Below are positions 8,421 through 42,838 of a DNA stretch of 64,000 bases, one piece after another; positions within the stretch are counted from its first letter, which is position 1, and each line of letters starts with the position of its first letter. The position numbers were made by a program, and so were the translations under genes. The notes beneath the pieces are model-generated. The model was not told the origin of the DNA, made no database searches, and saw only the letters and a list, made by a program, of their open reading frames with translations. The DNA comes from Escherichia coli. GTDB lineage: Bacteria > Pseudomonadota > Gammaproteobacteria > Enterobacterales > Enterobacteriaceae. The stretch is taken from assembly GCF_003334355.1 (NCBI RefSeq), contig NZ_QOWP01000022.1; one strand, written 5' to 3'.

Positions 8421-8843
8421 TTATTCCCGACCGCTGCGTACTTTGCCGCGCATCGCCTTCACGCTTGATTTTTGTGCTTTCGATGCCAGCCTGCGCTCTT
8501 TCGATGCACGGGTGGGCCGTGTGGGTCGTCGGGCTTTTTGTTCTGTTGTTAAATCTTTAATCACTGCCACCAGCCGGGCTAGCGCGGCTTCGCGGTTCAG
8601 TTCCTGACTGCGGTATTCCTGTGCCTTAATGACAATCACGCCATCACTGCTGATCAAATGATGGCTGGCGGCGAGTAGACGCTCTTTGTAATACTCTGGC
8701 AGGCTGGACGCCCGAATGTCAAAACGCAGATGAATGGCCGTTGAGGTCTTATTAACATGCTGCCCGCCCGCGCCCTGCGCACGAATGGCGGTGATCTCAA
8801 GCTCACCATCGGGAATAGCAACATGTCGGGAAATCACAATCAT
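8421..8843 (-). CDS. arfB: Peptidyl-tRNA hydrolase ArfB (YaeJ), alternative ribosome-rescue factor
   Basis: ORF track, 140 aa; catalytic GGQ motif ([10 protein letters not shown]); basic C-terminal tail. Confidence 0.95.
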
Positions 8844-9385
8844 GAAGGTTGTTGCCAGGCGGTTAAGTTAACTTCCAGATTATTCTTATCGTCCGATAAC
8901 CAGATCACGCCATCCTGAATCGTTGCCTGCAGCGTCATGGTACGATCGGCAAAGGCGCTTACTTTCGCCAGTTGTTCATCGTCCAGATACCAGACGGAAA
9001 GATTGGCAAACTGCACACATTTGCTCTGATTTTGCTGCCACCAGATTTGCGCCGCCCGACTATTATAGGTAAACAGCGCCACTTCTGCGGCCTGGGTGCA
9101 GGCTTTCTTAATCCGCCGCTCATCCGGCAGCCCCAGCTCAATCCACAAATCAATGCCCAGGTGATCGTTACGCAGCCACGCTTCCGGCTCATCATCGGCA
9201 CACAAACCACGGGTAAATTGCAGACGTTCATCAGCATATTTCAGCCACGCCAGCAAGCGCAGCATCATACGCTCCTGGGTTTCTGAAGGGTGGCGCGCCA
9301 GCGTCAGAGAGGCATCGAGAAACTGGTTGCGGTCGAGATCGGCCACATTAACCGTCGCTTTATAAATTGTCGCTTTAAGCGCCAT
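8840..9385 (-). CDS. yaeQ: YaeQ family protein (function unknown)
   Basis: ORF track, 181 aa; 4-nt overlap with arfB. Confidence 0.88.
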
Positions 9386-9550
9386 AAGAAAACTCCTTTC
9401 GAATCAGGAGGCCATTGTAACGGAATACGTGCAGTTGCGGCGCTGATATTGCAGAAATGAGTGTGGTATAGTCACCTTGCGAAACAGAGTTTATCTTCGT
9501 AGGCTTAGACTTGCATCCACGGTTAAGTCAGAGTGCTGACAGGAGGGCAT

Positions 9551-9751
9551 GTGGAAAAATATTGTGAGTTAATACGCAAGCGGTACGCGGAAATCGCCAG
9601 CGGAGACTTAGGATACGTTCCGGACGCGCTGGGCTGCGTTTTGAAAGTGCTGAATGAAATGGCTGCCGACGACGCCCTTTCTGAGGCTGTCAGGGAAAAA
9701 GCAGCATACGCTGCGGCAAACTTACTGGTGAGCGATTATGTCAATGAATGA
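9551..9751 (+). CDS. yaeP: Small protein YaeP (UPF0253, 66 aa)
   Basis: ORF track 9533-9751 trimmed to the GTG at 9551, which is preceded by AGGAGG at 9541-9546. Confidence 0.85.
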
Positions 9752-9998
9752 TACGTATCAACCAATCAATTGTGATGATTACGATAATCTTGAGCTAGCC
9801 TGCCAGCATCATTTAATGCTGACACTTGAGCTGAAAGATGGCGAAAAATTGCAGGCAAAAGCCAGCGATTTAGTCTCCCGCAAAAATGTGGAGTATCTGG
9901 TCGTCGAGGCCGCTGGCGAAACCCGTGAGCTACGTCTGGATAAAATTACCAGCTTTAGCCACCCGGAAATCGGTACGGTGGTGGTGAGCGAGTCCTGA
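9744..9998 (+). CDS. rof: Rof (YaeO), Rho-specific inhibitor of transcription termination
   Basis: ORF track 9738-9998; K-12 start taken at the ATG at 9744 (MNDTYQ..., 84 aa); overlaps the yaeP 3' end. Confidence 0.9.
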
Positions 9999-10006
9999 TT
10001 GACTTT

Positions 10007-10040
10007 CGCCGGATGCGACGTTTGATGCGTCTTATCCGGC
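10007..10040. repeat. REP element between convergent rof and tilS
   Basis: Seen in sequence: CGCCGGATGCGACGTTTGATGCGTCTTATCCGGC palindrome. Confidence 0.8.
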
Positions 10041-10046
10041 TTTCAC

Positions 10047-11345
10047 TTAACTAAGCGTTTTCTGCCAGACAAAACTTACGCCATTCTCACCTTCAGCCAC
10101 ACCTTCTTGCGTCACAAATACCCCTGCCGCCGCAATCAGCGTTTCGCCATAAAACAGCAGTGGCGTGGTGTCACGTAGCCACGGCGGCACGCCTAACTCT
10201 TGCCAGATTTTCTTCAGCTTACGTCCGCCGTTGCGCCCGACAATATGCAGCAATCCTGCCGCTTTGAAACGCACGCTGACCGCTTCGTCTGCACGCGGAG
10301 GGCGAATATCGCCTCCCGCAGTAAGCTGTACGCTTCCCAGCCCCGCCGGTAATTCCAGCGGTTGTAGCCACGTCTGCCACGGCACAATGGTTTCACTTTG
10401 CCCGGTGACGGATTTAATCCACCACAGTTGCGACTGATATCGGCGGATTTCAAACGCGCCCAAGCGTAAACAGGGGGAGGCATCTTCCCGCGCCAGCGCC
10501 ACTTCCTGCCAGATCCGCACCAGCGCGTCGCGGGAAGGCATTGGTGCATTCTGCCCTGCCAGCCAGCGACGGATAATCGCCGCGCGGCGGGCATCACTCA
10601 TCGCCAGCATTGGCGCAATCTGCAGCGTCCCCTGCGACGTTTGGCAGTGTGCTAAATCATCCGCCAGCAGTTCATCCAACAGACTCTCTTGTTCAGCACA
10701 AAGTGCGGCGCTGCGGGCCGTTGCTTCGGCAAAATGCGGCCAACGCTGCTGCAATAACGGCACTACGCGCAGGCGCAGAAAGTTACGATCGTATGAGTCG
10801 TCCTGATTACTTTCGTCTTCAATCCAGCGTAAACCATGCGCCAATGCCCACTGCGCCAGTTCCCCCCGCGTGCGGGCAAGCAACGGGCGGATAAGCCGTG
10901 TTCCGGCAAACTCCGAAACTTCCGCCATAGCCGAAAGCCCGGCAGGGCCGCTACCGCGTTTTAGCGCCAGCAGAAAGGTTTCACATTGATCGTCGAGATG
11001 TTGCGCGGTGACCAGCACTTCGCCGGGCAATAGGGTACGGGCAAATGCCTGATAACGCGCCTGCCGCGCCTGGGCCTCAATCCCCAGCCCCTCTTGCGCA
11101 AGTTGTACGCATTCGACCACCAGCGGCACCTGCCACTGTTGGCAGACGTTTTCGCAATGCGTAACCCAGGCATCGGCATTGGCACTTAAACCGTGATGCA
11201 CATGAATAGCGCGCAGAGTGACGCCCGGATTTTCCGTCCGCCACTGCACCAACTGATGCAGCAGAACGGTGGAGTCAAGCCCGCCGCTAAAGGCCACCAG
11301 AATCTGGCGTGAGGTGAGAAGTTGTCTATTGAGCGTGAGTGTCAT
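10047..11345 (-). CDS. tilS: tRNA(Ile)-lysidine synthetase
   Basis: ORF track, 432 aa; PP-loop ATPase motif SGGLDS near the N-terminus. Confidence 0.95.
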
Positions 11346-41367: not shown

Positions 41368-42792
41368 TTACTGCATTAACAGGTAGATGGTGCTGTCGCC
41401 GCGCTGAATGTTGAGTGCCAGCACAGACGGTTTGCTGTCGAGAACTTTACGCAGTTCAGCGATGTTTTTCACTGCCTGCTGGTTCGCGCCAATAATCACA
41501 TCACCTTTCTTCAGGCCGATCTGCGCAGCCGGAGTGCCCGTTTTCACGTTGTTCACTACCACGCCCTGATCTTTGCCTTTGTTGCTCATCTCAGCGCCTT
41601 CAATGCCGTTGAAGATGGAGCTGGAATCAACCTGATTCTGGCTGCTCTGCTGCAGTTCCAGGTTCACGTTAACCTGCTTACCGTCGCGCAGTAAGCCCAG
41701 GGTCAGTTTGCTGCCTACCGGCATAGTACCCACCTGAGCACGCAGTGCGGCAAAGCTGCTGATCGGCTTACCGTTCAGTGAGGTGATCACATCACCCGCT
41801 TTAATGCCCGCTTTTGCAGCGGAGGAATTAGGCAGAACCTGGCTTACGAAAGCACCGCGCTGGGCGTCAACTTTCATCGCTTTCGCCAGTTCGGAGTTCA
41901 GCTCAGTCCCCATAATACCCAGCTCACCGCGTTTCACCTGGCCGTATTCCACCATCTGCGAGGTCAGGTTTTTCACCATGTTACTCGGGATAGCAAAACC
42001 GATACCGATGTTGCCGCCGTCCGGTGCGAGGATCGCGGTGTTGATACCGATCAGTTCGCCGTTCAGGTTAACCAGCGCACCACCGGAGTTACCACGGTTG
42101 ATCGCTGCATCGGTCTGGATGAAGTTTTCGTAGTTTTCGGCATTCAGGCCGCTACGCCCCAGCGCAGAGACAATCCCGGAAGTTACCGTCTCGCCCAGAC
42201 CAAACGGGTTACCAATCGCTACGGTGTAATCACCCACGCGCAGTGCATCAGAATCCGCCATCTTAATTGCGGTCAGGTTTTTCGGGTTCTGGATTTGGAT
42301 CAGCGCGATATCAGAGCGCGGATCTTTGCCAACCATCTTCGCGTCGAACTTACGGCCATCGCTCAGTTGAACTTTAATGACCGTCGCGTTATCAACAACG
42401 TGGTTGTTGGTGACGACATAGCCTTTATCGGCATCAATGATGACGCCGGAACCCAGCGCCATGAATTTCTGTTGCTGGCCGCCACCATTACCGCCCTGGC
42501 CACCCTGGCAGAACGGAGAGCTCTGGAACGGAGAACCTTCCTGGCAGAACGGAGAATCATCACCGAAGAACTGCTGGAAATTACGCGGCATACGCGGCGT
42601 ATTAACGGTTGTGCTACCTTCTACGTTAATGCTGACCACTGAAGGCATCACCTTTTCGAGCATCGGTGCAAGGCTTGGCATCTGCTGGGCTGTCGTTGCT
42701 GAAGAAGTCTCAGCCGCCGTTGCAGAGAGCGGAGATAACGCCAAACCTAAACTCAGAGCCAGTGCACTCAGTGCTAATGTGGTTTTTTTCAT
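41368..42792 (-). CDS. degP: Periplasmic serine endoprotease/chaperone DegP (HtrA)
   Basis: ORF track, 474 aa; signal peptide; catalytic Ser motif GNSGGAL; two PDZ domains. Confidence 0.97.
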   Translation of the reverse strand: MKKTTLALSALALSLGLALSPLSATAAETSSATTAQQMPSLAPMLEKVMPSVVSINVEGSTTVNTPRMPRNFQQFFGDDSPFCQEGSPFQSSPFCQGGQGGNGGGQQQKFMALGSGVIIDADKGYVVTNNHVVDNATVIKVQLSDGRKFDAKMVGKDPRSDIALIQIQNPKNLTAIKMADSDALRVGDYTVAIGNPFGLGETVTSGIVSALGRSGLNAENYENFIQTDAAINRGNSGGALVNLNGELIGINTAILAPDGGNIGIGFAIPSNMVKNLTSQMVEYGQVKRGELGIMGTELNSELAKAMKVDAQRGAFVSQVLPNSSAAKAGIKAGDVITSLNGKPISSFAALRAQVGTMPVGSKLTLGLLRDGKQVNVNLELQQSSQNQVDSSSIFNGIEGAEMSNKGKDQGVVVNNVKTGTPAAQIGLKKGDVIIGANQQAVKNIAELRKVLDSKPSVLALNIQRGDSTIYLLMQ

Positions 42793-42838
42793 GTATTTCA
42801 GTCTCGATTAACAGATAACGCAAAATTGCTGTGTTCTT

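Follow-up and report, generated by a model that had tools for sequence, protein, structure and literature searches.

Does the translation of rof, the gene for an inhibitor of Rho, depend on the translation of yaeP, the small gene whose 3' end overlaps the rof start? We addressed this question in a 64,000-nucleotide stretch of Escherichia coli DNA (contig NZ_QOWP01000022.1 of assembly GCF_003334355.1), which we call the window and in which position 1 is the first letter. The source region is the E. coli chromosome: E. coli ATCC 8739 has the same sequence as positions 9380-10060 (100% identity), its record is collinear with the window over the window's first 50 kb, and among 5426 complete E. coli genomes 5425 contain the yaeP-rof region. 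The locus is the known yaeP-rof (yaeP-yaeO) operon of E. coli, and both the observation of the overlap and its interpretation as coupled translation have already been published. Passages of Morita et al. 2022 (mBio, PMC9765468) note the overlap and suggest yaeP as a modulator of rof. Passages of Said et al. 2024 (Nat Commun, PMC11018626) describe rof as a gene without a Shine-Dalgarno (SD) sequence that overlaps yaeP by 8 nt; according to the same passages, the overlap with yaeP is constant for rof in Enterobacteriaceae, the two genes are unlinked in Vibrionaceae and lie on separate chromosomes in V. cholerae, REP elements flank the locus on both sides, and the yaeQ-arfB overlap is mentioned together with that of yaeP-rof. 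As far as these passages go, our description agrees with theirs in the locus, the overlap, the absent SD, the suggestion that yaeP modulates rof and the taxonomic pattern; it differs in the rof start, for which they give an 84-aa protein and an 8-nt overlap, whereas RefSeq and the present comparison favour ATG 9738, 86 aa and a 14-nt overlap. The passages contain no mention of a block of zero synonymous variation, of a GGUGA element or of the leader features. Thus, the additions made here are an invariant 30-nt block, evidence for the 86-aa start, a GUG/ATG contrast among yaeP genes, and tentative leader and junction helices, and the category of the finding is unchanged by them. In the papers and supplements that we searched, no experiment testing the dependence of rof on yaeP translation was found, and the TRAINSPOTTER N-terminomics supplements, searched for start sites, hold no rof or yaeP entry.

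The argument turns on the following parts of the locus:

9541-9546, plus strand: SD sequence AGGAGG of yaeP, pairing with the anti-SD at -10.8 kcal/mol, with a 4-nt spacer (GCAT) before GTG 9551
9549-9572, plus strand: out-of-frame ATG in an AUGUG context with the yaeP GUG, opening a 7-codon ORF (MWKNIVS, then stop) in E. coli
9551-9751, plus strand: yaeP coding sequence, GTG start, stop TGA 9749-9751, 66 aa, YaeP/UPF0253 family, three-helix bundle
9727-9731, plus strand: SD-like GGUGA, complementary to UCACC of the 16S 3' tail, 6 nt before ATG 9738 and 12 nt before ATG 9744
9738-9998, plus strand: rof coding sequence, 86-aa form (MSMNDTY...), stop TGA 9996-9998; the alternative ATG 9744 gives the 84-aa K-12 form

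This anatomy is established. An earlier note on this DNA had described yaeP as a 66-aa gene that starts at a GTG behind an AGGAGG ribosome-binding site and overlaps the rof start with its 3' end, and the sequence, the list of open reading frames and the RefSeq annotation agree with it on every one of these points. RefSeq places yaeP at 9551-9751 and rof at 9738-9998 (86 aa), an overlap of 14 nt; in the K-12 convention (PDB 8W8D, Said et al.) rof begins at 9744 and encodes 84 aa, so that the overlap is 8 nt, within ATGAATGA. The rof frame is +1 relative to yaeP, as seen in the sequence and the list of reading frames, and from its two candidate start codons, ATG 9738 and ATG 9744, it is 5-11 nt to the yaeP TGA. 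The same note had called the arrangement easy to miss, which it is not: every RefSeq genome of E. coli carries annotations for both genes, and the overlap and the coupling idea are in print (PMC9765468 and PMC11018626). The out-of-frame ORF at 9549 is not conserved, being reduced to ATG-TGA in Leclercia and Lelliottia and lacking its ATG in some loci. PMC9841429 lists yaeP among the atGTG-start genes; there its SD is given as AGGAGG and its abundance as 94.5 ppm, and no ambiguity of the start is predicted.

Gene overlap alone is ordinary. The first 50 kb of the window contain 8 overlapping pairs of same-strand neighbours, and in three of these the overlap is 8 nt. The conservation of the yaeP-rof overlap, however, is far beyond chance. 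Species-representative genomes were scanned with a YaeP profile, and the best 80 loci, all from Enterobacteriaceae and with YaeP 82-98% identical, were combined with ATCC 8739 into a set of 81 loci; it should be noted that this set is dominated by one family and that its members are phylogenetically related. Distant lineages were sampled one at a time and comprise the rof-linked Enterobacterales Serratia, L092 and L098, plus homologues that are unlinked to rof. In all 81 loci rof lies directly downstream of yaeP, and the yaeP stop is TGA at an identical offset, +5 from the second rof ATG. The same stop/start geometry is found in the three more distant lineages, in which the junction reads ctATGttgATGaaTGA in Serratia, ttATGgtgATGacTGA in the AT-rich L098 and tcATGtcaATAagt in L092, where the equivalent of ATG 9744 is ATA and the yaeP 3' end is frameshifted. 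The co-occurrence of the two genes, proposed earlier as a check, thus holds in one respect and fails in another: they are adjacent in all Enterobacterales loci examined, but outside Enterobacterales yaeP homologues occur without an adjacent rof, namely in Vibrio, in Utexia and in three metagenomic lineages. The yaeP gene of Vibrio alfacsensis shares a TAATG overlap with a 63-aa DUF4250 gene, that of Utexia lies by itself behind ABC-transporter genes, and in the three metagenomic lineages yaeP is preceded by Zn-ribbon, SulA or Usp genes.

Linked and unlinked genes differ in their initiation signals. The yaeP start codon is GTG in 79 of the 81 rof-linked loci and in two of the distant linked lineages, L098 and Serratia; it is ATG in all five lineages unlinked to rof and in the degenerate gene of L092. 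As for rof, in three Vibrio species it begins 4-17 nt after a gene for a GNAT acetyltransferase, and two of these three carry a canonical AGGAG (-8.6 and -6.8 kcal/mol), the SD of V. cholerae being weak (-4.5 kcal/mol). With small samples, these patterns fit a derived enterobacterial arrangement in which rof would have given up its canonical SD and would ride on yaeP translation; in the same reading, and with the same small samples, yaeP initiation may be held down by its GUG start.

The initiation signals of the two enterobacterial genes are of very different strength. The yaeP SD is strong, as the earlier note had stated, at -10.8 kcal/mol against -2.8 kcal/mol for the best pairing of the region upstream of rof with the core anti-SD, so that rof has no canonical SD. 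The GGAGG core of the yaeP SD is kept in 81 of 81 loci, and only the first base changes from A to G in a few. What rof does have is the GGUGA element: the invariant UGGUGAGCG pairs with the extended 16S tail GAUCACCUCCUUA at -7.6 kcal/mol, and GGTGAG is retained in Serratia, L092 and L098. With respect to the start codon, ATG 9738 is kept in all 81 loci and in the three distant lineages, whereas ATG 9744 is lost in L010 and L019 (ACG) and in L092 (ATA). The loss in L010 and L019 corresponds to an AAT-to-AAC change in yaeP, which is synonymous, and probably happened once, in a Pluralibacter-like lineage. In all three loci the Rof ORF is intact with all conserved residues, and the equivalent of ATG 9738 is the sole available start. 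Because ATG 9738 is always kept and ATG 9744 can be lost with the rof ORF intact, the 86-aa start with its 14-nt overlap is probably real and, to judge by this comparison, probably the main functional one; use of ATG 9744 as a second start is possible. For studies of structure and function the choice has modest importance: the N-terminus of Rof occupies a cavity in the N-terminal domain of Rho, and activity is lost when a His-tag is placed at the N-terminus of Rof.

The most direct evidence on the junction comes from synonymous positions:

9722-9751, plus strand: invariant junction block TTACTGGTGAGCGATTATGTCAATGAATGA, with zero synonymous variation, containing the rof initiation region and the yaeP stop codon

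Across the 81 loci, the third-codon-position entropy is 0.00 for yaeP codons 58-64, 66 and 67, compared to a mean of 0.94 bits for codons 2-57, and variation resumes at 9752, the first base past the yaeP stop. A comparable run was reached in 0 of 200,000 permutations (p < 5e-6, a value obtained on related sequences). Of the 30 nucleotides, 16 lie upstream of the first rof ATG and cannot encode Rof because of an in-frame TGA at 9729-9731, and the constraint therefore acts on the nucleotides themselves. The yaeQ-arfB junction of the same loci served as a control: its last ten yaeQ codons have third-position entropies of 0-2 bits and no block. We conclude that, as judged from the alignment of these loci, the junction is under nucleotide-level purifying selection, and that the size and position of the block are, on the same evidence, those of the rof translation-initiation region.

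These observations lead us to favour coupling, because rof lacks a canonical SD, starts 5-11 nt from the yaeP stop, keeps this arrangement strictly and shares with yaeP a nucleotide-constrained junction; the canonical AGGAG of uncoupled rof in two of three Vibrio species is counted as support as well. We estimate the probability that rof translation is coupled to yaeP translation at about 60%. Both the dependence itself and the sub-mechanism at work are what we infer from these patterns. The course of events may be as follows. A bicistronic yaeP-rof transcript would be made from an extended -10 promoter and would begin with a conserved leader of about 72 nt. Ribosomes would load at the strong AGGAGG, and YaeP would start at the conserved GUG, a weaker start codon. 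The rof start would most likely be AUG 9738, with AUG 9744 as a possible second, both within the last 14 nt of yaeP. Most Rof would come from ribosomes fresh from yaeP, which would terminate at UGA 9749-9751 and re-initiate 5-11 nt back, helped by a weak contact with GGUGA. Additionally or instead, the passage of ribosomes might melt local structure that covers GGUGA and the AUG. The expected outcome is a low output of Rof at a fixed ratio to YaeP, which would suit a growth-inhibiting global anti-terminator. Tight control of Rof dosage is plausible, because Rof overproduction inhibits growth or colony formation (passages of PMC9765468 are among the sources).

Of the competing explanations, the one that survives best is that rof initiates independently, from a weak translation-initiation region of its own made of GGUGA and AUG 9738, that the overlap reflects genome compaction, and that the block results from selection on this initiation region together with dual coding. 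The energy of the GGUGA pairing with the extended anti-SD and its usable spacing to ATG 9738 agree with this explanation, as do the predicted ensembles, in which AUG 9744 is mostly unpaired, the frequency of overlaps in the first 50 kb, and the V. cholerae rof, whose SD is weak although no yaeP lies upstream of it. Conversely, it does not lead one to expect that all lineages examined share one stop/start geometry, even amid diverged surrounding sequence, that rof is left without a canonical SD, that two of three uncoupled Vibrio rof genes carry AGGAG, or that the yaeQ-arfB overlap in the same loci is free of comparable constraint. We consider independent initiation rather unlikely.

Coupling of the kind favoured here has well-known precedents. 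Termination-reinitiation at overlapping stop and start codons couples trpE-trpD and trpB-trpA of E. coli, and this type of coupling is said to have been surveyed by Huber et al. in Nat Commun in 2019. As in the trp pairs, yaeP and rof are on the same strand, the downstream start is a few nucleotides from the upstream stop, and the downstream SD is weak or absent, for rof with respect to the core anti-SD; however, the trp genes overlap by 1 or 4 nt (UGAUG, AUGA), whereas the rof start is 5 or 11 nt upstream of the stop, and a longer back-scanning would be needed. In rpmI-rplT of the infC-rpmI-rplT operon and in MS2 coat-replicase, coupling by unmasking of a sequestered initiation region is experimentally established. 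Similarly, a candidate yaeP-rof helix would bury the rof GGUGA and AUG and would be opened by ribosomes finishing yaeP, but, unlike those systems, this helix is without covariation support, is weak in the present E. coli sequence and is unstable in full-length folds. In mok-hok the translation of a harmful protein depends on an overlapping upstream reading frame. Likewise, the growth-inhibiting Rof has no strong SD of its own and lies behind, and overlaps, an SD-bearing upstream ORF; the differences are that YaeP is conserved, folded and independently distributed and not a dedicated leader frame, that Rof is a regulator and not the toxin of a toxin-antitoxin system, and that, unlike for mok-hok, we know of no antisense RNA control for yaeP-rof. 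A nearer comparison is yaeQ-arfB (overlap 8840-8843, ATGA), in which the downstream gene also overlaps the upstream one and has no SD (-1.5 kcal/mol for arfB), but where, unlike at yaeP-rof, no block of suppressed synonymous variation is found.

The helix that would mask the rof start is a candidate only, and is based on RNA folding models:

9783-9800, plus strand: candidate 3' arm of a long-range helix (RNAalifold), in about rof codons 14-20

The pairing proposed by RNAalifold joins GGUGAGCGA (9727-9735) and UGUC (9739-9742) with 9783-9786 and 9790-9800. It is present in 57 of 67 folds of a 105-nt segment. The native duplex has a mean of -15.5 kcal/mol, compared to -11.4 kcal/mol for synonymous Rof recodings (mean z = -2.1), and in 61% of species it beats 95% of the recodings. 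The duplex of the present E. coli sequence is weak, with a G-A mismatch caused by the CTA codon at 9795-9797 (native -12.0 kcal/mol, p = 0.25). The 5' arm of the helix is invariant, and therefore no covariation is possible. In whole-mRNA partition-function folds of 12 species, only 0-7 of the 13 bp of the helix form; in these predictions GGUGA usually finds some pairing partner (P unpaired 0.00-0.37), AUG 9744 stays largely unpaired in most of the species, and the rof initiation region has no more structure than the average of the mRNA. A local hairpin at 9726-9764, found by single-sequence folding (z = -0.69), was dropped in favour of the alifold helix because its 3' arm varies freely while its 5' arm is invariant.

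The two proteins belong to established families. YaeP matches NCBIfam NF003436 with 137.4 bits (cut-off 99), and all its close homologues carry Pfam PF06786 (UPF0253). It was correctly described in the earlier note as a protein of unknown function, though a crystal structure exists (PDB 5H1N, a dimeric helical bundle; Kim et al. 2018), which shows the small helical-bundle fold, and its AF2 model has a pLDDT of 90.8. The protein has been detected in Salmonella proteomics. The family is small, with 36 clusters at 50% identity among 1.84 billion proteins. YaeP is thus a genuine, detected three-helix protein and not merely a leader peptide, because it occurs without rof outside Enterobacterales. 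Rof matches NCBIfam NF008636 (PF07073, Rof/YaeO) with 181.5 bits (cut-off 117), the 86-position profile covering residues 1-86, and its sequence is identical to PDB 1SG5 (86 aa), 8W8D (84 aa) and 8PTM. The Rho-contacting residues of the N-terminal helix named in Said et al. (C10, Y13, D14 and E17 in the 84-aa numbering) are present, and the Rho-contacting residues are kept in all orthologues displayed. Separately, we considered a programmed frameshift that would yield a YaeP-Rof fusion. Fused YaeP-Rof ORFs do exist in the protein database (P0161, P0164, P0171, P0194 and P0210), but they are read as indels or assembly errors, because they are mostly singleton metagenome clusters with differing junction points and because GAA-UGA is not slippery.

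Given two small, conserved cytoplasmic proteins whose genes are invariably adjacent across the Enterobacterales examined, in a coupled arrangement that passages of Said et al. (PMC11018626) point out, YaeP and Rof might be functional partners (chaperone, antagonist or co-factor), and the overlap would then enforce a ratio of co-production and would not serve to limit Rof. This explanation is improbable. YaeP homologues exist without rof in Vibrio, Utexia and the three metagenomic lineages, and the placement of the two genes on different chromosomes in V. cholerae (passages of PMC11018626) also speaks against it. Furthermore, passages of Morita et al. 2022 (PMC9765468) report that rof alone is sufficient for the anti-termination phenotype and that YaeP alone has no effect on terminator read-through or the colony phenotype, and passages of Said et al. 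2024 (PMC11018626) that Rof binds and inhibits Rho in vitro without YaeP.

The weakest explanation assigns the block to an overlapping element other than the rof start, such as a promoter or transcript on the antisense strand, an internal promoter, or a site bound by an sRNA or protein. In its favour are an absolute 30-nt invariance that exceeds that of most translation-initiation regions and a promoter-like ATCACA-17-TATCAT on the minus strand (9776-9748) that touches the 3' end of the block. It is very improbable, given that the antisense match has the minimum score (9 of 12) with its -35 in freely varying rof codons, that the plus strand has no promoter there, that Rfam gives no match, and that the block has the footprint of an initiation region, its end coinciding exactly with the yaeP stop and its beginning lying some 16 nt ahead of the first rof ATG.

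If coupling is the correct reading, control of Rof would begin upstream of yaeP, where several further features were predicted:

9443-9472, plus strand: candidate sigma-70 promoter of yaeP-rof from a consensus scan (CTGATA, 18-nt spacer, TATAGT, with a TG extended -10)
9479-9550, plus strand: conserved 5' leader of about 72 nt, with a near-invariant block at 9476-9507 (alignments)
9487-9494/9499-9506, and hairpin GUCAG 9527-9531/CUGAC 9536-9540 abutting the SD, plus strand: candidate leader helices (pair counts)
9517-9554, plus strand: candidate 'anti-start' helix (RNAalifold), in which CCACG 9517-9521 pairs with UGUGG 9550-9554 and covers the yaeP GUG
10008-10041, no strand assigned: REP-type palindrome between the convergent rof and tilS, with sub-threshold naRNA4 (REP-derived) matches on both strands

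The consensus scan predicts a transcript start near 9479, and alignments show that the extended -10 TGGTATAGT is conserved across Enterobacteriaceae. Between yaeP and rof no strong promoter or terminator is predicted, and the matches inside yaeP are at chance level. A promoter inside the junction, or a leaderless rof transcript, was considered and rejected: positions 9700-9745 contain no plus-strand match, and a GATTAT noticed by eye has no usable -35 or TG. At the other end, the operon probably stops at the REP palindrome. Conservation of the leader does not reach as far as Serratia. The near-invariant block of the leader may instead belong, as an element at the DNA level, to the promoter region of the divergent yaeQ. 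In the anti-start helix, 98.3% of the cells are paired, and a C-G to U-A covariation is seen in 11 sequences; the yaeP GUG is mostly paired in the predicted full-mRNA folds of 12 species. The single-sequence z-score of this helix is only -1.08. Taken together, the three leader helices show more covariation than shuffled controls (1/500), a result that related sequences can also give when no structure exists. An Rfam search of the leader and the junction returned no family match. The anti-start helix over the yaeP GUG is thus a tentative prediction of RNA folding.

In a more far-reaching view, the dosage of Rof may be set by a dedicated throttle at the RNA level, perhaps a switch that responds to stress, made up of the invariant junction, the conserved GUG and the structured leader; Rof would then be made from AUG 9738. 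We regard this extension as possible but, on balance, doubtful. If it is true, the Rof N-terminus that inserts into Rho would be two residues longer than in the 84-aa K-12 form, and there would be a concrete handle on the control of Rof expression, a question that passages of Said et al. (PMC11018626) call unanswered. Rof is one of few endogenous direct Rho inhibitors. If its synthesis is slaved to YaeP translation, the regulation of Rof would have to be sought at the yaeP promoter, leader and GUG start, and not at rof itself.

The start of yaeP and its leader lie among several small elements, which are listed here with the other elements found in the window.

Elements in the window, by position (strand stated where assigned)
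8840-8843: ATGA overlap of yaeQ and arfB
within 9476-9554: candidate GUCAG/CUGAC hairpin adjoining the SD of yaeP
9517-9521 (CCACG) with 9550-9554 (UGUGG): candidate anti-start helix, with a C-G to U-A covariation
9549-9572: out-of-frame ATG ORF of 7 codons (MWKNIVS*) in E. coli
10008-10041: REP-type palindrome between the convergent rof and tilS, with sub-threshold naRNA4 matches on both strands
32882-32991, minus: CssrA sRNA, Rfam gathering-score match
33830-33916, minus: t44 RNA, 5' of rpsB, Rfam gathering-score match
42787-42832, minus: HtrA (degP) 5' UTR thermometer, Rfam gathering-score match

Strong conservation extends across the yaeP leader (9476-9554), which is without a match to any Rfam family; alternatively, this conservation could come from elements of the divergent yaeQ promoter that act at the level of DNA. 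The GUG of yaeP stands in the context AUGUG. The ATG at 9549, which opens the 7-codon ORF in E. coli, is followed directly by TGA in Leclercia, Lelliottia and some Enterobacter, leaving just a start-stop (ATG-TGA), and GTGTG takes the place of this start context in Salmonella diarizonae and Phytobacter; therefore, there is no conserved peptide at this position.

Within rof, C or T strongly predominates at the third position of the two Leu codons and the Ala codon that lie in 9789-9800 (58/67, 64/67 and 65/67), and neither Leu codon is often CTG. The Leu codon at 9795-9797 is CTA in this E. coli sequence; it is CTC or CTT in E. albertii, Escherichia sp. MOD1 and most other genera. At the neighboring yaeQ-arfB junction, in contrast to the yaeP-rof junction, the same set of 79 loci varies at synonymous sites to an ordinary degree, and arfB is without an SD (-1.5 kcal/mol).

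The database includes five YaeP-Rof fusions of 124-147 aa (P0161, P0164, P0171, P0194 and P0210), mostly singleton clusters from metagenome assemblies, and one 90-aa YaeP (P0112, 7 contigs) that runs on into a third frame. Recoding is disfavored as the origin of the fusions: they look like indels or assembly errors, because the junction points differ.

In Vibrio alfacsensis (L084:3001-3398), a yaeP homologue adjoining proS overlaps a 63-aa DUF4250 gene via TAATG, and thus YaeP is paired in that lineage, as the upstream member, with a small protein other than Rof. At the rof loci sampled from V. cholerae, V. anguillarum and V. aestuarianus (L094, L095 and L096; region 960-1750), rof lies 4-17 nt 3' of a 173-aa GNAT acetyltransferase gene in all three species. 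A 2OG-Fe(II) oxygenase gene follows rof immediately in V. anguillarum and V. aestuarianus (2/3), and in V. cholerae a transposase gene is inserted between the two. Said et al. (PMC11018626) describe rof in Vibrionaceae as having no conserved neighbors.

The locus L092 (3001-3449) represents one of three more distant Enterobacterales lineages with a rof-linked yaeP; its yaeQ is truncated. YaeP is highly divergent in this lineage (39% identity to E. coli YaeP), and the 3' end of yaeP is frameshifted (…ANLFTGERSCQ*). Despite this divergent yaeP, the L092/L093 lineage keeps ACTGGTGAGCG, the equivalent of ATG 9738 and an intact rof, which suggests that the junction and rof persist longer than the function of yaeP.
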